From: an archaeon
Lineage (GTDB): Archaea > Iainarchaeota > Iainarchaeia > Iainarchaeales > JAAZKV01
DNA length: 19,698 bases
Direction: 5' to 3'
NCBI GenBank assembly: GCA_036170245.1
Contig: JAVHOV010000012.1
Coordinates: forward strand, 1-19,698
A model generated the notes under the pieces. That model searched no databases. It had not been told where the DNA came from and saw nothing but the letters and a program-made list of their open reading frames with translations. Of this stretch, positions 4,018 to 18,273 are shown in pieces. The number at the start of each line of letters is the position of its first letter. Within the stretch, counting starts at the first letter, position 1. The translations under genes were made by a program, and so were the position numbers.

Positions 4018-4626
4018 TCAAAGATAATCGTATGCAGTGTAAAATACAACTTTTCCTTTGTAGATTCCAGCAGGGATAAAATGGTGTATTTGGGGTGTGT
4101 TTAAGTTTTCATTTGTTGCTGATATTTTTGTAAATATACCATATATTTGGCTTAATGCTTTTTGGCAACCTATAATTTCTTCTTTTGTCTTTGGGGCCCA
4201 TTGGTTTATTTTTTCAAGAAGCAAATAATTTTTGGTTATTCCAAATAATTTAGGGGTTCTTAAAATATAACTTACTTTTTCTCTCATCTTGTTTTTTCTA
4301 AAAAATTCATGGTGCAATTTAATGAACTGCCTGATTTCATTATCTTTTATACTTTTTTTAGAATGCCCTTGATAGTAGCTTCCTTCAGTATCTTTTACTG
4401 CAAATTCAACTCCATTAAATTTAAACACTCTTACAGATTCACTTGATTTTTTATTAGGCATCATTTTAGTAAATTTGTGAAATGATTCTGGATCAGAAAA
4501 ATTATTTTTAATAAACTCAAGTGCTTCTTGTGCAACTTTTGGAGTAGGAAGATTTCTTCTAAAAGCAGGCTGTTTGAAGATTCTTAATGTTCGAACTTTT
4601 CTTCTCCTCAAACTAAGTGGCTTCAT
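4018..4626 (-). CDS. Hypothetical protein, possibly degenerate kinase-like fold
   Basis: Open frame; likely start ATG 4626 (MKPLSLRRRK) with TTAAATA about 25 nt upstream on the minus strand; FAVK and PKLFG..YLLLEKI motifs. Confidence 0.7.
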   Translation of the reverse strand: MKPLSLRRRKVRTLRIFKQPAFRRNLPTPKVAQEALEFIKNNFSDPESFHKFTKMMPNKKSSESVRVFKFNGVEFAVKDTEGSYYQGHSKKSIKDNEIRQFIKLHHEFFRKNKMREKVSYILRTPKLFGITKNYLLLEKINQWAPKTKEEIIGCQKALSQIYGIFTKISATNENLNTPQIHHFIPAGIYKGKVVFYTAYDYL

Positions 4627-4735
4627 AACTATTGAATGATTTAGTAAGTATTTAACATTTTTCAGAGCTAATTTTGGCAAGCTTGCCATCAACCTTTATA
4701 AACCTTTCACAATCATTTTTCTTATATAACAAAAA

Positions 4736-7084: not shown

Positions 7085-9616
7085 ATGGGAAAACAATTTT
7101 TTTCTAAGAATATTTTTCATTTTAGTTTCTTTTTAATTGCATTAATTTTACTAATTTGTCCTACTTATGCAATTCTTCAAAATGGTTCAATAAATATTTT
7201 TGCAGTAACTGAAGACAATAAGGGAATGGCTGCAGAACTTTATATGTACACAATTTTAGGAACAGGAAAATCAGCTTTTATTACTTCAAATTCTTTGGTC
7301 GGAAAAGATACTCAAACAACAGGAAACATTGCACTTGCAATTGCTCAAAAAGAAACAGGAGTAAGTTTAGGGGACAAAGATATTATTTTTGATATAAGAG
7401 CAAATGCTTCTGAGGTTGATGGTCCTTCAGCAGGGGCAGCAATGACTCTTCTTTCTTATTCAATGTTTTCAGAAAAACCTCTTCAAGCAAAAATAGGTTT
7501 GACAGGCACAATTAATTCAGATGGTACAATTGGAATGGTTGGTGGAGTTGGTCCAAAATCAGTTGCTGCAAGCAAAGCAGGAATAAAATTATTTATGATT
7601 CCAAATGGAGAAGCAGTTGCTGATATTCAAGATGGAAAAGACATTCAGACAGTAAACTTGCTGGAATATGGTCCGCAAAAATTGGGAATGAAAGTAGTTG
7701 AAGTTGCAAATATAAAACAAGCAATTGAATATGCTTATTCAAATATTGAAGATATTGTAGTTGATTCAAATTCTTCAACTCAAGTATTTATTCCAAATTC
7801 AATTAGTTACGAGCCTGTTCTAATTCCAATGGTAAGTATTTCAAAGAGTTATATTGATGATGCAAAAATAGTTGTTGATGAATCAAAAAAAGCACTTGAT
7901 GAAAGCGGGTTAAGCGAAAAAATACTGGCTGACTTTTACCAGAAGTACAGCGAAGCTAAGAAGAATGTGGAACTTGCAAAGAGATTTTTAGATCAAAATT
8001 ATTTGTATTCTTCAGCAAATTATGCATTTAATGCAAGGGTTCTTGCAGGAACCATTAAAGAGATTGCCCAAAATCCTTCAATGCTTACAAGTGATGCAGT
8101 AATACTTTCAAAAGTATCTGTACTGAAAAAGGAGCTTGAAACCCAAAAAGCCAAGTCAAATTATATTCCTCTTAATGAATTTGAATGGATTATTGGTGCA
8201 CAGCAAAGATTAGCTTATGCAGAAAATGCTTTAAATGAAATAACTTCTACAGTAATAATTCCTGATGATACTCCCCTTACTGATGCACAGAAAGAATTAG
8301 TTCAACAAAATTTGCAATATGGAAAAGTTTATGATTATGTTTCTGCTCAAGCATGGATTAGTGTTTCAAATGATTTTATAGATCAAGCTAGTAAAGATTC
8401 AGAAAAAGCAGTTGTTTTTTACACTCCTGAATTTAGGGAATTAGTCAACAAGAAGGTTTCTGAAACTAAGCAATTGCTAAAAGATTCAAACTCTTCTAAT
8501 TCAATTTATGAAGATGCTACAAGGAGATACCAATCAGCATTAATTTCAATGGACAATAATTTTCTGTTGGCTGCTTTGTATGATGCTTATTTTTCTGAAT
8601 CCTTTGTAATGGCTGAAACAAATAGACAATTTATTTCAGAAGACAAATTGTTTAATTTAATTCAAGCTGATGTCAATGCCGGTTCAAAATCCGACTCTGT
8701 TTGGGCAAACTTGTTCTTTGATTATGCAAAGTTCTATTATGAGAATGCTTTGTTTAACAAAAAACTTCAACGAGCTGAAGAGTATACTCAAAGTTTAGAA
8801 ACAAGTTATGATTTATTGTTTTTAAGCAAGAATCTTTCAAACGTAAAAGAAATAGTTTCAGAATATGTTAGTTTTACTACTTTTGATACTTACAAAGAAG
8901 AGGAGCCTGTAGTTGAAGTAAAGTATACAAGAGTAGTTGACTCTTCGCAGGTTCTTTTGATTGGAATTCTTTTACTTGCAATTTTGCTTTTGGTAATAAT
9001 TTTGATAATAGGAATTGCTTCTAGAGCAACAAGGCAAAGTTTAACTTACTCTTCAAGAAAAGATAAATTAAAATTAGTTTTAGGCAATCTTGACAAAGCT
9101 TTATCAAGCAAGAAAGTTTCGGATGCAGAATATTTCTTTATGAAGAAAAGATATGAGGACGAACTTTCAAAGAACAGCGATTTAAATGAAGCCCGAAACA
9201 GAAGTGGAGTAAAATTATCTATTGAGGACTTAAGGGCAAAAGAAAGGGCTTTGGAATCAGCTTTGGTTGATCTTAAGCGACATTTCAAAGAAGGATTGAT
9301 AATTCCTGAGGATTATGAACACAACAACAGGCAGCTTGTAAGCGAACTTGATGACATAAAGCTTGACATAAAACAAATACAAACAGATCTTCATGAGCAA
9401 AGAAGAGAAAAATCAACTTTCTCAAAAATAATTTCGAAATTCAAAAAGAATAAAGATGAATTGAAAGGAACTGAAGAACTTGTTGAAGAAGAAGCGAAAG
9501 ACGAACAGAAAGAAAAAGTAAAAAGGAAAAAGATTCTAAGAAGATTTGCTTATGCCAAAAACAAGAAGAAAGAAGATTCTAAAGAAGTTAAATCATCTAA
9601 ATTAGGGTTTGATTAA
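7085..9616 (+). CDS. Secreted, membrane-anchored Lon-type (S16) serine protease without AAA+ domain
   Basis: Signal-peptide-like N-terminus; DGPSAG catalytic Ser with Lys 43 residues later (GGVGPK); long helical region; TM helix at about 8951-9019; charged cytoplasmic tail. Confidence 0.88.
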   Translation: MGKQFFSKNIFHFSFFLIALILLICPTYAILQNGSINIFAVTEDNKGMAAELYMYTILGTGKSAFITSNSLVGKDTQTTGNIALAIAQKETGVSLGDKDIIFDIRANASEVDGPSAGAAMTLLSYSMFSEKPLQAKIGLTGTINSDGTIGMVGGVGPKSVAASKAGIKLFMIPNGEAVADIQDGKDIQTVNLLEYGPQKLGMKVVEVANIKQAIEYAYSNIEDIVVDSNSSTQVFIPNSISYEPVLIPMVSISKSYIDDAKIVVDESKKALDESGLSEKILADFYQKYSEAKKNVELAKRFLDQNYLYSSANYAFNARVLAGTIKEIAQNPSMLTSDAVILSKVSVLKKELETQKAKSNYIPLNEFEWIIGAQQRLAYAENALNEITSTVIIPDDTPLTDAQKELVQQNLQYGKVYDYVSAQAWISVSNDFIDQASKDSEKAVVFYTPEFRELVNKKVSETKQLLKDSNSSNSIYEDATRRYQSALISMDNNFLLAALYDAYFSESFVMAETNRQFISEDKLFNLIQADVNAGSKSDSVWANLFFDYAKFYYENALFNKKLQRAEEYTQSLETSYDLLFLSKNLSNVKEIVSEYVSFTTFDTYKEEEPVVEVKYTRVVDSSQVLLIGILLLAILLLVIILIIGIASRATRQSLTYSSRKDKLKLVLGNLDKALSSKKVSDAEYFFMKKRYEDELSKNSDLNEARNRSGVKLSIEDLRAKERALESALVDLKRHFKEGLIIPEDYEHNNRQLVSELDDIKLDIKQIQTDLHEQRREKSTFSKIISKFKKNKDELKGTEELVEEEAKDEQKEKVKRKKILRRFAYAKNKKKEDSKEVKSSKLGFD

Positions 9617-9651: not shown

Positions 9652-12600
9652 TTACTGCTGTTTGGTTTCATTATCAAAAGCTTCTTCTTCATTTTCATTC
9701 ACTTTTGATTTGTAACTCTCGCTCTCTTTAAGCTCTTCATCTTTAGTGTTCTTTAATTTTAATCCAATTACAGAACTGTCATCCTTTCCTCTTGCGACCC
9801 CAATTATTTGATCTGCTTTCTTAGTGATAACATCATTATGTGTAATTGCAATGAACTGGCTCTTTTCAGCAATCTTTTCAATTAAGTTACTCATCTTTAA
9901 TGAGTTTTCCTTATCAAGCGCTGCATCAGCTTCATCAAATGCATAGAATGGTGCTGGATGATATAATTGAATTGCAAACATAAATGCTAGTGCGGTTAGA
10001 GTTTTTTCTCCGCCACTCATTGAATCAATGTTTAACAGTTTTCCTGCTTTGTGCTTTGCATCAATTATTAATCCTGATTCAAGAGGCTTATCTGGGCTTG
10101 CAAAACTCAAATTACCCTCTCCGTGGAAAAACTTAAAGAAAATTTCCTTAAAGTTCTTGTTAACTTCATTAAAGCAATCCATGAATACGCCAGTTCTCTT
10201 AACTTCGATTTTATCAATCATATCAAGCACTGCAAGTCTTTCCTCAGTCAGCTTATTTGCTTTATTTTGTATATCATCAACTTCTTTCTTTAGTTCATTA
10301 AAATTATCAACCGCTTTAAGGTTAATCGCACCTATTTCATTTAGCTTCTTTTCTATAAAAATTATTTTTTCCTTACATTCTTCAAGACTCTTTGAAGTAT
10401 AAGGTGCGATTCCATCAAACTCTTTCTTTTCTTCATTCAAATCGTTTTGTCTAACGCCAATTTTACCTTTTTCCATATTGAATTCATTTATTCTAAATTC
10501 AATCTTCTTTACTTTCCCAGAATCGTTCCAAACTTCCTTCTCAAATTTGTCAATCTTCTTATCTTGATATTCTTTTTCATCAGCAAGAATTGCATTTTTC
10601 TTCTTTGCCTCGATTAATTCCTTCTCTTTTGCAACAACAATTGCTTTCATTTCTTCAATATTCTTCTCTTTTTCATTAATTTCCTTATTAAACTCTTTAA
10701 TTTCTTCCTGCAGGGCGTTATTCTCAAAAGCGGCGTCATCTTCTCTGGCTGAAATGCTTTCAAGTCTTGATTTTATTTCATTCAGAGTTGATTCAGTAGA
10801 GTTCTTATTATGTAGAAGTATGTCGCTAGTTTTACTTGTGCTTGAATATTCTTCAAATATATTTTGCTTTCTTAATTCGTGCAAAATATTTTTTGCATCA
10901 TTAAGTTCATTAGTAAGGGTATTTACTTTTGCTTGGGCTGTTTCTCTTTTCTTAAGTTCAGCTTCTATTCCCTTTGCATCCAAATCATTCTTTAATTCGT
11001 TTTTTCTTTTATTTAGTTCCTCAATTCTTGTCAAAATGTTTCTTTCCTGAAGTATTTCAGCACTGATTTTTGAGATTAATACAATTCTTTCCTTTTCTTC
11101 AACTACTTTCTTTTTTATTTCTTCAATTAGGCCCAAATGTTCTGCCTCTTTTTTAGCAAACTCTTTCATTAAAGATTCTTTTTGGGCAATTAAACTCAAT
11201 TTTTTATCTTCTTTTAATTGAGAATCACAAGTAGGGCACTGGGAAGAAGCTTTCTTTAATTCACTAACTCCTTTTTCTTCGTGTAATCTTCTACTCAAAA
11301 AAGAGCTTTTTTCTTCAAACAATTGTGAAAGTTTCTTCTCAAGAGCGTTTAATTCTTTTTCAGGATTCTTGTCCAAGTGCAAGTTAAGTACTTTCTTTTT
11401 TTCTTCAATTTTTTGCATTTCACTGGTTAAGTTCTGTTCTTCACCCAAAAGTTCAGATAATTTCTTCTCATTAAACACTTTTTGTTTTTCCCAGTTTCTT
11501 GCAAATACTTCTAAATCAAACGATTCTTTCCTCAATCTTTCAAGCTCTTTTTCAATTTCTTCAACTTTAATTTCTCTCTTTTGAAGTTCAACATTCTTGT
11601 CTCTGACAATTGTTTCAAGCTGTGCTTTCTTTTTTACTATTTCACTTATTTCACTCTCAATTCTCTTTTTTTCACTTTCAAATTTAATAAGTTTTTCTTC
11701 CAATTCTTTCTTTTCAGTTATTGTCTGTTTTATTGCCTTATTATTTGATTCAATCTTTTCATTATTTTTTGAAATTTGTTTTTTGCTTAAATCAATCTTT
11801 TCTTGTTCTAAGGAAAGTTTTGCTTTCTTTTCTTCAAACTCTCTTCCGATTGTAGTGTAGGTGTGTTCAGAAGCTTTAATCATTTGATTAGCAAGTTCCT
11901 CTGATTTAGCTTTTGATTCCAAAAGTTCTTTTCTGTTTTGAATAATTCTTTCGTCAAGCGTATTCTTTTCAGTATTCATTTTGGTAAGTTCATTGTCAAG
12001 ATCCAAAACCTTCTTTTCCAATGTATAAAGTTCTTTTTCAAGAATAGTTGCTTTAGTTCTCTTTCTTTCTTCTTCAAGCTCCTTAAACTCTTTAGCTGCT
12101 TTCATTTCATCTTCAAGATCAACTAAAAATTCGTTTCTTTCGTTAAGAATGATTGTTGCTTCCTTTATTCTTGAATCAACTTTATCAAGTTCTTTAATTG
12201 CCTCTTCTTTTTTAGCATCAAATTCGCTAAGGCCTGCAATAGAATCAATTATTTCTCTTCGCTGGACTGAAGACATTTCTATAATCCTTGTTATATCTCC
12301 TTGGGTAACAATATTGTGCCCTTCAACATCAATCCCAAGTTCAACTAAAAGGGAACTTATCTCATTTAAAGTAGTTCTTTTTCCATCTAACCTATAAACA
12401 CTTTTTCCTTGCTTGTCAATCATTCTGCTTATTTCGTACTGTTTATCATTATCCTTAAGAAGTAAATCAACTTTAGCATAATTTTCTTTAGCATTGTTAT
12501 TGACTAAATCAGTCAGTTTTCCTGCTCTAAGTGTTTTTAGTGAAGTTATCCCTAAAACAAAAAGGAGTGCATCAAGAGTATTACTTTTTCCAGAACCATT

Positions 12601-12696
12601 TGATCCAACAATTGCAGAAAAACCATTGCTGATAGGTATCTCCGCCTTTTTGAAAGATTTGAAATTCTTTAAAGAAAGCTTTACTAGCCTAGTCAT
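9652..12696 (-). CDS. smc: SMC-family ATPase with central CxxC motif and no recognisable hinge
   Basis: NFKSF, Walker A GSNGSGKS, LRA arginine finger, Q-loop VTQGD, GAINLKA, signature MSGGEK, Walker B/D-loop FDEADAALD, ITH; long coiled coils. Confidence 0.92.
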   Translation of the reverse strand: MTRLVKLSLKNFKSFKKAEIPISNGFSAIVGSNGSGKSNTLDALLFVLGITSLKTLRAGKLTDLVNNNAKENYAKVDLLLKDNDKQYEISRMIDKQGKSVYRLDGKRTTLNEISSLLVELGIDVEGHNIVTQGDITRIIEMSSVQRREIIDSIAGLSEFDAKKEEAIKELDKVDSRIKEATIILNERNEFLVDLEDEMKAAKEFKELEEERKRTKATILEKELYTLEKKVLDLDNELTKMNTEKNTLDERIIQNRKELLESKAKSEELANQMIKASEHTYTTIGREFEEKKAKLSLEQEKIDLSKKQISKNNEKIESNNKAIKQTITEKKELEEKLIKFESEKKRIESEISEIVKKKAQLETIVRDKNVELQKREIKVEEIEKELERLRKESFDLEVFARNWEKQKVFNEKKLSELLGEEQNLTSEMQKIEEKKKVLNLHLDKNPEKELNALEKKLSQLFEEKSSFLSRRLHEEKGVSELKKASSQCPTCDSQLKEDKKLSLIAQKESLMKEFAKKEAEHLGLIEEIKKKVVEEKERIVLISKISAEILQERNILTRIEELNKRKNELKNDLDAKGIEAELKKRETAQAKVNTLTNELNDAKNILHELRKQNIFEEYSSTSKTSDILLHNKNSTESTLNEIKSRLESISAREDDAAFENNALQEEIKEFNKEINEKEKNIEEMKAIVVAKEKELIEAKKKNAILADEKEYQDKKIDKFEKEVWNDSGKVKKIEFRINEFNMEKGKIGVRQNDLNEEKKEFDGIAPYTSKSLEECKEKIIFIEKKLNEIGAINLKAVDNFNELKKEVDDIQNKANKLTEERLAVLDMIDKIEVKRTGVFMDCFNEVNKNFKEIFFKFFHGEGNLSFASPDKPLESGLIIDAKHKAGKLLNIDSMSGGEKTLTALAFMFAIQLYHPAPFYAFDEADAALDKENSLKMSNLIEKIAEKSQFIAITHNDVITKKADQIIGVARGKDDSSVIGLKLKNTKDEELKESESYKSKVNENEEEAFDNETKQQ

Positions 12697-12702
12697 TTGT
12701 AT

Positions 12703-13467
12703 TCACTGTTTAGAGTAAAAATAATTTGTGATTGCGACAATAAAGTATAGACTAGTAAATATTTCGCCGATTGCAAGAATGATTAACTCTAAAACATTGC
12801 CTGCTATAAGTGATGAAATATATGCAATCAAGTTTCCTGCTAAAAGTGAAACTATTGCAACCAAAATTAAATACAAAGTAGCTTTCCAAAATCTCTTTTC
12901 AGTAAATTTCCATGATTTAGCAAATGCTTCTTTTACTTCATTTTCGCTTAATGCAGGAATAACAAATACTGTTTTTACAATTATTACAAATAAAATAATC
13001 ATGAAAAGTATAAATAAGATTAATCCGATTAAATCGCTAATTCCTGTTATTACTCCAATTATTGTTAAAATAAGTAATGCAAATAAAAAAGCTCCCCAAA
13101 ATACAATTGTAACTCCGATTGCTTTTCTAATTTCCATCATTGATTCATTAATTGCAGGAATTAATTTAGTTCCTTGTGCAATTTTTGCAGTGCTAATAAA
13201 TGCAATTACTCCTAAAGCAGTCATCAAGAAAGCCATTAATATTGCAGACAAAATTTCAACAGGGTATTGTGTCAGAAAAACACTCATAATAGTTTCGCTT
13301 GGAAATAAATCTGGGTAAAGAGTAATGTCAATCAGAGGGGCCTGTAAAATAAGACTCATTGCTTGAGTTACAGCCAAAGAAATTAGCATCATTCCTAAAA
13401 GAGGAATCCAAACTTTTAGCTTAAAGATTAATTGTAAAAAACTAGTAACTAAATTTGAAACTATCAT
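12703..13467 (-). CDS. Multi-pass membrane protein (about 6 TM), probably co-transcribed with smc
   Basis: 254-aa hydrophobic ORF with EAFAKSWKFT motif; stop lies 6 nt before the smc start. Confidence 0.85.
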   Translation of the reverse strand: MIVSNLVTSFLQLIFKLKVWIPLLGMMLISLAVTQAMSLILQAPLIDITLYPDLFPSETIMSVFLTQYPVEILSAILMAFLMTALGVIAFISTAKIAQGTKLIPAINESMMEIRKAIGVTIVFWGAFLFALLILTIIGVITGISDLIGLILFILFMIILFVIIVKTVFVIPALSENEVKEAFAKSWKFTEKRFWKATLYLILVAIVSLLAGNLIAYISSLIAGNVLELIILAIGEIFTSLYFIVAITNYFYSKQ

Positions 13468-14933: not shown

Positions 14934-17900
14934 TCATTCCAAAAGTGATTTTACTGGTCTTCCATTAATTGCATCAATTTGAACTATTCTTTCTTCGCCA
15001 GTTTTCTTCTTTAATACTCCTTCCCAAACAGGTAGGAATAAGTGGGTAATTTCCTTAACTGCAACATTTCCCCATAACTTCTTAAGTAATTCAGGAATTT
15101 CTTTTTCGCTCATGATTGGCTGTATTAGTATTGCTGAATCAACTTCAGTAATTGGTCTCTTTCCAATACTTGGCAGAATTTCGTGTAGTGGTGTGGGAGG
15201 AAGTTCCATTTCAATTTTTCCTGGAGCAAAGATTTCATTCTTTCTATCATCAATAAACTTTGCAATCAATCCTTTTTTTGCCAAGGTTTCAAGTACTCTT
15301 TTAGCATTTCCTTCTTCCATTCTCATAAGTGCAGCAGTTTCTTTAGCAGTTCTCTTTTTTTCAGCAATCAATTTTAGAACAGTTGTTTCAGCTTCGCTTA
15401 AATCAAGGAAAATTGGGAGACCCTTACTTTCTTTTAGAGTTCCGCGGTCATCATGAATAAATTCTCCTGTTAAAGAATCAATGAATGCTTCTCCTTCATG
15501 GAAAGCATCTTTGTGACTGAAGTACTTGTATCTAACTTTGTATATTTGTGCATGTTTCAAAGTAAGTCTGTCCAAAATTTCGTTATCAAGGAAGAGGAAT
15601 TTCTTTTCAGCCATTCCCAGTAATAATTTTCTTGCCTGCGGTTCTTCTATTACTTGTTTTAGTGCAGTAAGTTCAACTCTTTCCTCAATTTCATTCAAAT
15701 CGTTTTCAAATTCAAGAACATCTTTTGGCAGTTTCTTTTGTCCTTTTGGATTTGCCACTGCTTCTTTTTCAACTTCTGGATTCTGATCAGCTTCAAGCTC
15801 CATTTCTTTTTCTTTCTCTGCTTTAGCTTCTTCCTCAATTTCTTCAAGAACTTCTTTTGTAAAAACTTTTCCTTCTTTTTCAACAATACCATTTTTGTTT
15901 AACATATCCATTACTGTTGCAAGTTGAATTGATTTCTTGTAAGTGTTGTTTAATGTATCAATAGTTTCCTGCACACTTTCTGTTCTAATACTTGGATCTT
16001 TCTCAAGTTGTCTCTTTACAATATTGACTGCCAGGTTCTCAACTTTGTCAGTATCCATTTCCTGTTTTACTTCAACAGTTTCTGCATCTCTTCCTTCGTG
16101 CTGACTCATTCTTGGTCGAATGTTCATTACAAATGCTCTTGAAGTTGTCTCGCTTCTATCTCCAGTTAATGCAGTTCCAACTGGAAGAGTTTTAATGAAG
16201 TTAGACTTTCTATAAGCTCCGGGAACAATTGTTGGAGTTCTTTTGTAAATCGCTTTAATATCATCATCAAAAACTAACTTATGTGCCATGATTACATCAA
16301 GTTGACTTAAAACTCTTGAATCAATTGCACTTGGCTGCTGGGTAGCAAATACTAACGAGCACCCTGGTCTTCTTCCTTGTTTTACATACTCAACTAAAGC
16401 ACTACTTGCAGGAGTTTTAGCATTTCCTCCAGGAATTAGTGTATGTGCTTCATCAATGAATAACCATGTGGGAGGAATGTTTAATTCAACAAGCTCCGTA
16501 ATATCGGCTTCTGTTTCAAATTGTCCAGCAGCTTCTCTTCTTGTACCAAGTTTTCTTGCTGCAAGTATTCTTCTAGCAAATATTCCTACAACTAGTGCAC
16601 TGACAGAATCGTCCAAGAAACTTGTATCAAGAATAGTCATTTGTCCTGCTCTTGAGAGTAGTCCTAAAGAAGTTCCTTTGTCATCAAAAATTCCCCAATT
16701 CTTTGCAGCATCAAATCTACTTACAAGCGCTCTGATTGAATCTGCCTTGTATCCTTTTTCCTTATCATTTAATTCAGCATCATCTTCAAAGCATTTTACT
16801 AAATCATTTAGTGAGAAAGTGTTTTGTTTTCCTCTAATTTCTCTTGTTCCATCAATGCTAGTGTAACCTGATTTAACTTTTGCAATTCCTTTCTCCATTA
16901 ATAATCCTGTTGGGGAAAATCTGTCAATTCCAAAAGTCAAGCACCAATCTTCAGCAGTTAGTAAAGATGGTTGAATTGAGAACACTGCATCATAAGTGCT
17001 TTTAGGAACAGAATCTTTCATTCCAACTGGAATGAAAACTTTAATGTTGTCAAGGCCTCGAGGCATCATGTCCCATTTTGCCAAAAGTTCAAGTTCTTTA
17101 GCTTCTTTATTTGGGTGCTTCATTGACCAAAATACCCCAATTGGATCAACTACCACAATTCCAACGTTTTTGTTTTTAATTGCAAGTTCTTCAGCAACAA
17201 CACCTAAAACATATGATTTACCGCTCCCTCTTGCACCGCAGACAAACACAACGTGGGGATTTAATCCATCAAGATAAACATCAGTTCCTTCTTTGTCTTT
17301 CTCTTTAACTCTTCCAACATAAAGCCCGCCTTCTTCACCGTATTGTGCCAAAACACTTTTCTTTCTTCCAATATATGCGTGTCCAGTTTTTGCTGTTAAA
17401 AATTCCAAAGATGGTTTTATTTTTCCATCACTACTTGTTTCTTCATTCTCTTCATCTTGCGGCAATTGTGCTCTTGGCATTTTTCTTTTGTCATCATTTT
17501 CCTCTTCACTTTCATCATTATTTTTTTCTTTAATCTCTACTCCTTCTTCCCTTGTTCCTTCTTCGCGCAGCATTGCATCAGCCATTTCATCATGAGTTTC
17601 TTCTCCATGAGGAACATTTTCATTTAATCTAACTTTGTTTAATTTTACTTCTTGCTTTGCACTCATCATTGCTTTATTTTTTATTACACTTTTGATAATT
17701 GTTCTTTCAATTGGCAAAGGTTTACTTTCCTCTTCTTCCTCATCAATAATAACCTTCAAATCTAATTTTCCGCCGTAACCTTTTCCTTCTTTCTTCAAAT
17801 TCTTTTTAGCTGGGTCTTCTGCTCCTTTAATTGATTTTTCAAGCCCGTCTTCTACAATACTTTCAAAATTATTTTTAGTATTAGTTTTCTTTTTTCCGCC

Positions 17901-18179
17901 CGCATCCATATTTTCAAAAGCTTCATCTTTTGATTCAAAATCAGCTGCTGCATTTGGGTCTACAAATAGTTGAGGTTCAGTTACCTTGTCCTCTTCATCT
18001 TCTTCAAGTTCTTCATCAGCATCCTCATCTTCCTCATTTTCTTTTTTTTCAGTGTGAGGTTTTTTTGCATCTTTCTCTGCTAATTTTTCTTTAAGTCGCT
18101 TTAGTGCCTCTTTCTTTTCAGTATCTTCTCCAAAAACATCCTCAAAAGGATCCTTTTCATCAGCTTGCTCTTCAGGCAT
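14934..18179 (-). CDS. Large HerA/FtsK-superfamily P-loop ATPase with acidic N-terminus and C-terminal wHTH
   Basis: Walker A GARGSGKS, VVVDPIG, Walker B LFIDEAH, GRRPG arginine finger, ATQQPS; start ATG 18179 preferred over GTG 18188. Confidence 0.9.
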   Translation of the reverse strand: MPEEQADEKDPFEDVFGEDTEKKEALKRLKEKLAEKDAKKPHTEKKENEEDEDADEELEEDEEDKVTEPQLFVDPNAAADFESKDEAFENMDAGGKKKTNTKNNFESIVEDGLEKSIKGAEDPAKKNLKKEGKGYGGKLDLKVIIDEEEEESKPLPIERTIIKSVIKNKAMMSAKQEVKLNKVRLNENVPHGEETHDEMADAMLREEGTREEGVEIKEKNNDESEEENDDKRKMPRAQLPQDEENEETSSDGKIKPSLEFLTAKTGHAYIGRKKSVLAQYGEEGGLYVGRVKEKDKEGTDVYLDGLNPHVVFVCGARGSGKSYVLGVVAEELAIKNKNVGIVVVDPIGVFWSMKHPNKEAKELELLAKWDMMPRGLDNIKVFIPVGMKDSVPKSTYDAVFSIQPSLLTAEDWCLTFGIDRFSPTGLLMEKGIAKVKSGYTSIDGTREIRGKQNTFSLNDLVKCFEDDAELNDKEKGYKADSIRALVSRFDAAKNWGIFDDKGTSLGLLSRAGQMTILDTSFLDDSVSALVVGIFARRILAARKLGTRREAAGQFETEADITELVELNIPPTWLFIDEAHTLIPGGNAKTPASSALVEYVKQGRRPGCSLVFATQQPSAIDSRVLSQLDVIMAHKLVFDDDIKAIYKRTPTIVPGAYRKSNFIKTLPVGTALTGDRSETTSRAFVMNIRPRMSQHEGRDAETVEVKQEMDTDKVENLAVNIVKRQLEKDPSIRTESVQETIDTLNNTYKKSIQLATVMDMLNKNGIVEKEGKVFTKEVLEEIEEEAKAEKEKEMELEADQNPEVEKEAVANPKGQKKLPKDVLEFENDLNEIEERVELTALKQVIEEPQARKLLLGMAEKKFLFLDNEILDRLTLKHAQIYKVRYKYFSHKDAFHEGEAFIDSLTGEFIHDDRGTLKESKGLPIFLDLSEAETTVLKLIAEKKRTAKETAALMRMEEGNAKRVLETLAKKGLIAKFIDDRKNEIFAPGKIEMELPPTPLHEILPSIGKRPITEVDSAILIQPIMSEKEIPELLKKLWGNVAVKEITHLFLPVWEGVLKKKTGEERIVQIDAINGRPVKSLLE

Positions 18180-18273
18180 ATTAATCACAAAACTTAGTAA
18201 ATACTACAATCAGAAGGTTTTTGTCTTTAAATACTTTTTCGTAAGACCCATTTTGGTTAATTAAATTAGGGGG

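Follow-up and report, generated by a model that had tools for sequence, protein, structure and literature searches.

Results

The smc gene of the window and its protein

The DNA analysed here (the window) is a stretch of 19,698 nucleotides from an archaeon of the order Iainarchaeales (contig JAVHOV010000012.1, assembly GCA_036170245.1). On its minus strand lies an smc gene whose product of 1014 amino acids combines the ATPase heads of Smc with an arm apex that resembles the zinc hook of Rad50 (Table 1). A hinge-to-hook swap on Smc heads had been proposed in a previous reading of the sequence alone, and it is supported by what follows: the hinge is missing, the heads are those of Smc and the CPxC motif is conserved.

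The ABC head of the protein is split, and its Walker A, R-loop, signature and Walker B/D-loop are of Smc type; Pfam SMC_N matches the protein with 188.5 bits. The motifs LRA, GAINLKA, MSGGEK and PAPFYAFDEADAALD are all found where the sequence-only reading had placed them, as is CPTC, in the context QCPTCDSQL, near the midpoint of the coiled coil. The N-terminal head half also contains VTQGD, which we take to be the Q-loop. Pfam SMC_hinge (PF06470) has no match in the protein at E<=0.1 and none in its own genome, and the models described below show only a hairpin at that place, so the claimed lack of a hinge holds; Rad50_zn_hook is present in the same scan yet below its cut-off. Among NCBIfam models, TIGR02169 (SMC_prok_A) ranks first with 533 bits in two stretches, which is below its cut-off of 729.4; a hinge-bearing relative (L088) reaches 830 bits. 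The ASRP family model (NF045487), with its cut-off of 300, reaches 74 bits, and Rad50 models score at most 124 against cut-offs of at least 700.

A third cysteine, C841 (10174-10176), lies in the head-proximal coil. It is invariant in 79/79 aligned hook proteins and occurs in many hookless Smc as well; the six hinge-bearing relatives of alignment A1 do not have it.

Table 1. Features of the smc gene and of its two neighbours (positions in the window; residues of the 1014-aa protein)
Feature	Position	Strand	Basis or remark
Smc gene with zinc-hook apex	9652..12696	-	1014 aa; top NCBIfam model TIGR02169 SMC_prok_A
ABC ATPase head, N-terminal half (residues 1-156)	12229..12696	-	motifs, AlphaFold model, Pfam SMC_N 4-125
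Walker A GSNGSGKS (residues 31-38)	12583-12606	-	motif
LRA (residues 56-58)	12523-12531	-	motif
N-terminal coiled-coil strand (residues 157-480)	11257..12228	-	model helices; profile-profile alignment, collinear with hinge-bearing Smc arm
Hook hairpin (residues 481-495) in place of hinge domain	11212..11256	-	models, 1l8d/6zff match, pattern common with archaeal Rad50
C487-P-T-C490, predicted zinc ligands, context QCPTCDSQL	11227..11238	-	motif; homologue conservation
C-terminal coiled-coil strand and joint/neck region (residues 496-857)	10126..11211	-	motifs, model, profile alignment
GAINLKA (residues 789-795)	10312-10332	-	motif
Head, C-terminal half (residues 858-981)	9754..10125	-	motifs, model
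Signature MSGGEK (residues 893-898)	10003-10020	-	motif
Walker B/D-loop PAPFYAFDEADAALD (residues 914-928)	9913-9957	-	motif
ITH	9838-9846	-	motif in C-terminal head half
Acidic tail, low confidence, variable among homologues (residues 982-1014)	9655..9753	-	pLDDT <50
Lon-type S16 protease-domain protein; synteny marker, not known to belong to the complex	7085..9616	+	Pfam Lon_C
Hydrophobic protein, probably membrane; synteny marker	12703..13467	-	ends 6 bp upstream of smc, same strand

The apex is a Rad50-type hook

The conservation of CxxC, one of the checks named in the sequence-only reading, is borne out. Of the 120 listed homologues, 119 have a single CxxC at the same position; where their records carry a label, most read Candidatus Diapherotrites or Iainarchaeum and one reads Micrarchaeota. 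C487, P488 and C490 are invariant among 79 aligned homologues. Both cysteines are retained in all 31 hook rows from 20 families, at just 15-54% apex identity to the 1014-aa protein. In the AlphaFold model (79 homologues), a helix runs to residue 480, a hairpin follows at 481-495 and a helix resumes from 496; nothing globular lies between the two arms. A model of the apex by itself has the same fold with mean pLDDT (predicted local distance difference test) of 95.

The profile of the 31 apex sequences matched the hook chains of P. furiosus Rad50 (1l8d, 6zff) with E 1.2e-15 and 61 bits over 100-125 residues; human Rad50 (5gox) followed with 27.5 bits, and the best non-Rad50 chain scored 21.6 bits. 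Aligned on the cysteines, the 31 Smc hooks and 34 archaeal Rad50 hooks have the pattern L-x6-C-P-[VT]-C-x3-L-x4-K-x2-L in common, that is, the positions L(-7), P(+1), V/T(+2), L(+7), K(+12) and L/I(+15). With a hook profile of 54 columns, the Rad50 hooks of Hadarchaeum and of two Micrarchaeota-type proteins reached 45-48 bits and 53 Rad50 hooks of the order 11-43 bits. At the lower end were four ASRP hooks (3-5 bits), 12 coiled-coil controls (at most 6.6) and halobacterial Rad50 (-1). A complex prediction of two apex copies with zinc scored 0.02 with controls that did not fold, and it counts neither way. Taken together, sequence profiles and structure models show the predicted apex to be a 15-residue hairpin homologous to the Rad50 hook, which replaces about 160 residues of the hinge.

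Within the order, the hooks of Smc and Rad50 carry opposed charges at two positions counted from the first cysteine. At +4, Smc has E/D in 87% and Rad50 K/R in 56%; at +18, Smc has K in 52% and Rad50 E in 59% (compare window positions 11185-11226 with the hook region of L104, the Rad50 of the same genome). These charges might keep the two kinds of hook from mixing, or favour mixing.

The heads belong to Smc

Over the same 325 columns, the head of the 1014-aa protein is 42-53% identical to hinge-bearing Smc of Iainarchaeota (8 rows), 39-48% to Smc of Micrarchaeota (10), 33-41% to bacterial Smc (8), 20-27% to Rad50 (11) and 17-20% to ASRP (3). When the profile of 79 proteins was compared with the PDB, Pyrococcus-type Smc heads scored 400-500 bits and the best Rad50 head 71. 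The head-only phylogeny that the sequence-only reading had named as a check gives the same answer. In a tree of 89 rows, Rad50 and ASRP form separate clades (100 each) and the hook proteins fall among Smc of Iainarchaeota. Supports throughout are values of the Shimodaira-Hasegawa-like approximate likelihood ratio test (SH-aLRT) from quick searches. ASRP are represented by haloarchaeal proteins that pass NF045487, standing in for ClsN, which is itself not included, and the Smc row of Hadarchaeum is absent because its anchor motif is missing. Forcing hook proteins and Rad50 into one clade (48 of the 89 rows) costs 39 log-likelihood units and is rejected by the approximately unbiased (AU) test with p-AU 0.0375. 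The heads are thus placed in the Smc clade; they are not of Rad50 type, and the protein is not a member of ASRP.

Arms, locus and arm-length classes

Profile-profile alignment with 33 hinge-bearing archaeal Smc finds both arm strands collinear with theirs as far as the tip. When 1.84 billion representatives were searched, most full-length hook proteins matched the profile in one stretch; in hinge proteins the match broke near position 484 and resumed near 500-515. The distance from Walker A to the signature is 863 residues here and 1034 in hinge-bearing L088. Because the gap is about the size of a hinge, the arm itself is nearly unchanged in length. Model, collinearity and spacing therefore agree on an antiparallel coiled-coil arm of canonical length.

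The chromosomal surroundings are shared with hinge-bearing Smc. The S16 protease-domain gene, convergent with smc, adjoins it in 42 of 67 loci of the order, among them the locus of the hinge-bearing Smc of genome G031, and the hydrophobic neighbour is present in 29 of 67. In G031, smc has the same neighbours as in the window: the S16 protease-domain gene, a 273-aa gene just upstream and a winged-helix gene. Because of these common neighbours, hinge and hook forms are positional orthologues.

Among 170 distinct full-length hook proteins, which are related and not independent counts, the spacing from Walker A to the signature is 847-868 residues in 163, 646-682 in 6 and 813 in 1. In the six short forms each strand is missing 89-110 residues. 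Such forms arose in at least three places in the tree, with a long form next to them every time (f5, support 99; f30 group, 99; f32, 100). In B. subtilis Smc, functional arm lengths are described as following a period of 91 residues, and a hook chimera as having a similar arm-length pattern (PMC5344682). The match between the natural losses and the Bacillus period suggests that the arms still work as they do in Smc.

Distribution of hinge, hook and bare tips

The phylum was sampled with 215 genomes, 196 in the order and 19 in other orders. The N-terminal head was matched in 191 of them and the hinge in 19, of which 17 belong to the 19 genomes of other orders. The two hinge matches within the order are the Smc of G031 (family f8) and a fragment in G014. 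The latter was set aside as a probable bacterial contaminant: it lies on a 1.6-kb contig and its best match is Smc of Haliscomenobacter (Bacteroidota). In a Micrarchaeota-centred sample, the hinge was present in 59 of 61 genomes, and all 25 loci fetched had a hinge and no apical CPxC; both tallies include one unpublished genome (G248). The apex was examined in 28 of the order's 32 families, in most of them from 1-4 genomes: it is a hook in 20, a hinge in 1 and neither hinge nor CxxC in 7. At the level of sequence, this confirms the hinge-to-hook swap as order-wide, extending to most of Iainarchaeales.

A tree of 584 columns was built without the apex from 80 rows (one dropped). It unites 29 hook and 15 hookless rows in a single clade (SH-aLRT 99) with none of the 34 hinge rows inside. 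Two other hookless rows fall among hinge proteins and, by their position in the tree, are separate losses. At the base of the clade, f7 (hook), f3+f18 (tip insert) and the remainder are not separated; the data allow, but do not prove, a single gain of the hook. Several hookless forms are nested among hook forms (f2 clade, 99; f29 inside a clade of 95). In f2, f28, f17, f6 and f29 (L054-L056, L075, L076, L077, L097), Smc has 884-961 aa after removal of inteins, no hinge and no CxxC, and most of these proteins are about 60-80 residues shorter around the tip. Repeated secondary loss of the hook is the likely origin of these forms.

Families f3 and f18 carry a conserved, non-coiled insert at the tip, of about 110 aa in f3 (L061, approximately 490-605; L094, L318-L322) and shorter in f18 (L095/L096/L323-L328). 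By eye the insert could pass for a shrunken hinge, a view that profile tests did not support: compared as profiles, the two match with probabilities of 0.2-1.5%, which a reversed control equals, and a 33-sequence hinge HMM scored the inserts no higher than reversed sequences. No ScpB match was found in the seven f18 genomes. Short Smc that keep both head halves but match no hinge and lack CxxC were noticed in Hadarchaeum yellowstonense (L109:3992-6250, 753 aa) and in a Saccharibacteria genome (L136:3995-6277, 761 aa); P0157 and P0193 resemble them and fall among hinge-bearing proteins. Judging from such sequences, loss of the hinge seems to be recurrent.

No second origin of the hook outside the order was detected among the 150 best representatives at 50% identity or in the 25 Micrarchaeota-centred loci; by genome, DPANN archaea were sampled in Iainarchaeota and the Micrarchaeota-centred set, and the scan of named genomes covered 1 of 64 parts of the collection. 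Of the 150 representatives, 139 were new and, by motif, divided into 100 with hinge, 25 with hook and 14 with neither. The four hook rows from this set that were placed in the tree fell inside the hook clade. An intein with LAGLIDADG endonuclease interrupts Walker A (GK|C...HN|S) in L089, L097 and L098, as well as in the long L034, L069, P0092, P0105 and P0122; it occurs in hinge, hook and hookless Smc alike.

Partner genes and other genes of the window

The source genome (867 kb, 86% complete, 43 contigs) has no second Smc. It encodes ScpA (contig C33), ScpB above the TIGR00281 cut-off (C31), a Rad50-like protein of 814 aa with its own CPTC (C32) and an Mre11-like gene (C25), all on contigs other than that of smc. 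Within the order, ScpA is found in 180 of 196 genomes, ScpB in 173 and Rad50 in 188; both ScpA and ScpB are present in all 55 genomes that are at least 90% complete. An smc operon with scpA and scpB was considered and rejected, such an arrangement being found in 0 of 67 loci. The distance from Walker A to the hook in the source genome is 456 residues in Smc versus 383 in Rad50. Rad50 arms of the order (L248-L297) come in two length classes, with 316-323 or 373-384 residues from Walker A to the hook, even within one genus.

The S16 protease-domain protein of the window has 843 aa. It contains two hydrophobic stretches, the first of them N-terminal, a protease domain with GPSAG at 113, and a long tail rich in charges. 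The window also encodes an archaeal-type FtsZ (Pfam) and further genes that we read as Spt5/NusG and ribosomal genes. At 14934-18188 (minus strand) lies the gene of a HerA/DUF87-type ATPase of 1084 aa, whose N-terminal region is long and acidic and whose C-terminal part shows a hint of a winged helix. An open reading frame of 224 aa without a Pfam match (4018-4692, minus strand) is oriented opposite to the two ribosomal protein genes that flank it, presumably L11 and L1.

Discussion

A probable condensin with a zinc hook

In our opinion, the gene encodes the cell's Smc condensin ATPase, in which a Rad50-type CPxC hairpin has replaced the hinge and likely binds zinc between two Smc subunits. 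We put the probability of this explanation at roughly four in five. Sequence comparison shows its basic parts, namely Smc-type heads, arms collinear with those of hinge-bearing Smc to within a few residues of the tip, homology of the hook, a chromosomal locus shared with the hinge-bearing gene of the nearest family that keeps the hinge, and the presence of partner genes. The remaining parts are modelled on known systems. Two CPxC motifs, one from each Smc, would share a single zinc ion as in Rad50 and thereby join the arm tips; both zinc binding and dimerization are expected from homology and from the chemistry described for Rad50 (PMC6969161). The complex would then be Smc2-ScpA-ScpB2, with ScpA bridging the heads and ScpB bound to ScpA. 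Such a ring might use ATP to extrude loops and thereby fold and segregate the chromosome, in line with proposals for other Smc-ScpAB; binding of ScpAB and loop extrusion are suggested by work on archaeal Smc-ScpAB (PMC11840125).

A possible history starts with a single swap close to the base of the order, in which the hook was a copy of that of an archaeal Rad50, probably the cell's own. Afterwards, the hook would have been lost secondarily several times and the arm shortened by one turn, likewise several times. We lean slightly towards the broader proposal that the only condensin of this whole order of DPANN archaea is hingeless, that it took the Rad50 hook once, kept the arm period of about 90-100 residues through at least three shortenings and dropped the hook in several lineages. 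If this is true, then Smc-ScpAB needs tuned arms and no dedicated tip domain for chromosome folding.

Several observations weigh against our explanation. Firstly, the hook of the single protein is matched by Pfam Rad50_zn_hook below threshold (478-516, E 0.02, 15.1 bits; cut-off 24.3). Secondly, when CxxC is masked in the targets, the 56 closest Rad50 flanks score at most 11 bits and controls up to 6.6; with the margin so reduced, homology to this Rad50 type is supported, but no donor of the hook stands out. Foldseek of the apex model is similarly weak: nothing is returned at E<=0.001, 1l8d comes third (E 0.03, rmsd (root-mean-square deviation) 2.2 over 103 columns), and three further Rad50 hook chains occupy ranks 4-6. 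The rejection by the AU test is modest, and the head and 584-column trees come from quick searches with no bootstrap. The hook protein P0147, with its intermediate spacing of 813, is off the period. None of the 67 loci has scpA or scpB beside smc. The families with neither hinge nor CxxC (7/28) show that the hook can be lost, which weakens any claim that it is essential. Finally, zinc binding, dimerization, ScpA binding and loop extrusion are attributed to this protein by analogy.

The main rival holds that the CPxC hairpin is mostly a structural turn capping the coiled coil, while arm packing, head engagement and the ScpAB bridge keep the complex together and tip dimerization is weak or dispensable. 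Such a weak link is conceivable because the cysteines have gone from several nested lineages, most of which still have ScpAB; f18, with no ScpB in its 7 genomes, is the exception. Hingeless Smc without CxxC in Hadarchaeum, in a Saccharibacteria genome and, as reported, in marine Actinomycetes (PMC12153180) point the same way. A mere turn would hardly explain, however, why both cysteines are kept in 31 hook rows of 20 families when the rest of the apex is so divergent. Moreover, each chain offers two cysteines, and a zinc site of four, as Rad50 chemistry has it (PMC6969161), needs a partner. We therefore consider this rival unlikely, if the most serious one.

A second proposal would have the Smc hook pair tip-to-tip with the resident Rad50 and so couple folding to break repair, or the whole protein repurposed for repair. 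The hooks of the same cells share a pattern and have opposed charges at +4 and +18, and the arms would be free to mix if co-expressed. Nevertheless, the heads are plain Smc, Rad50 and Mre11 are separately encoded, and the two arms differ in length (456 vs 383). In addition, the ScpA and ScpB found in 55/55 near-complete genomes would find no other Smc to work with. We regard a mixed Smc-Rad50 dimer as possible, unsupported and quite improbable. As for an assembly chimera, a one-off deletion or a Rad50 or ASRP protein mistaken for Smc, the incomplete, fragmented source genome and the missed TIGR02169 cut-off might invite that suspicion, but conservation across 20 families refutes it, with 170 distinct full-length hook proteins of near-constant spacing from many independent assemblies and with ASRP and Rad50 models far below their cut-offs (74 vs 300; at most 124 vs at least 700), so that its probability is negligible.

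What the natural swap means

The swap of hinge for hook has its precedent in the laboratory. B. subtilis Smc carrying the P. furiosus Rad50 hook is described as supporting normal growth (PMC5344682), and the reverse swap as functional in fission yeast Rad50 (PMC6969161). The success of the engineered Smc(Zh) lowers the mechanistic surprise of a natural one. The sequence-only reading expected the protein to bear on whether the hinge is needed; it does so as a natural confirmation and extension, and not as a first test, because the engineered swap precedes it (PMC5344682). Working swaps in both directions (PMC5344682, PMC6969161) left open why the hinge is so widely conserved. Two preprints of the Gruber laboratory call the hinge replaceable, and one of them (10.1101/2020.12.04.411900) proposes traversal of one complex past another, or cohesion, as the reason for its conservation. 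The present lineage offers a natural series at one orthologous locus, from hinge to hook, short-arm hook and bare tip, and its short forms are an independent check on the arm-length rule. Surveys that collect Smc by its hinge domain, as the one outlined in PMC5344682, would miss the whole group.

Full-text literature searches, largely confined to journals outside subscription, listed no paper whose title, opening of the abstract or consulted passages described a natural hook-bearing Smc. The main text of two archaeal SMC phylogenies (10.1101/2021.05.15.444277, 10.1101/2024.01.07.573240) contains neither "zinc" nor the name of the phylum, and "hook" is absent from a review of crenarchaeal chromosomes.

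Comparison with known systems

With prokaryotic Smc (TIGR02169; Pyrococcus 5xei, 5xns, 4i99) the protein shares head and neck/joint motifs, register and length of the arms, co-occurrence with ScpA and ScpB and an orthologous locus. It differs in having a CPxC hairpin for the roughly 160 residues of the hinge and in scoring 533 against the TIGR02169 cut-off of 729. We class it among the orthologues of Smc, as one of variant architecture that stands outside the canonical members. The engineered B. subtilis Smc(Zh) (Burmann et al. 2017, PMC5344682), as reported, likewise has Smc heads and arms on a Rad50 hook and arm steps of about 91 aa, whereas the present form is natural, archaeal and order-wide, has natural short-arm and hookless derivatives and is known from sequences alone.

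Rad50/SbcC (1l8d, 6zff, 5gox) has the hook and its flanking helices in common with our protein (E 1.2e-15), but its heads are only 20-27% identical, and Rad50 and Mre11 exist separately in the same genome. ASRP (ClsN, Sph; Yoshinaga et al. 2022, PMC9389158) are described as archaeal SMC-related ATPases with a zinc hook too. They form a clade of their own (100), have a SESE-type signature, 17-20% head identity, about 650 aa and hooks scoring 3-5 bits; the hook motif of the members fetched is CWTC. The hinge-less SMC of marine Actinomycetes (Watson et al. 2025, PMC12153180) also combine Smc heads with the lack of a hinge, but they are bacterial and are stated to have no CXXC.

In reviews (PMC10586767), the hinge is the defining mark of SMC and the hook that of Rad50. 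The hook-bearing Smc of Iainarchaeales is a real, natural and lineage-wide form that crosses this textbook line, by a swap that we otherwise found described only for an engineered protein.

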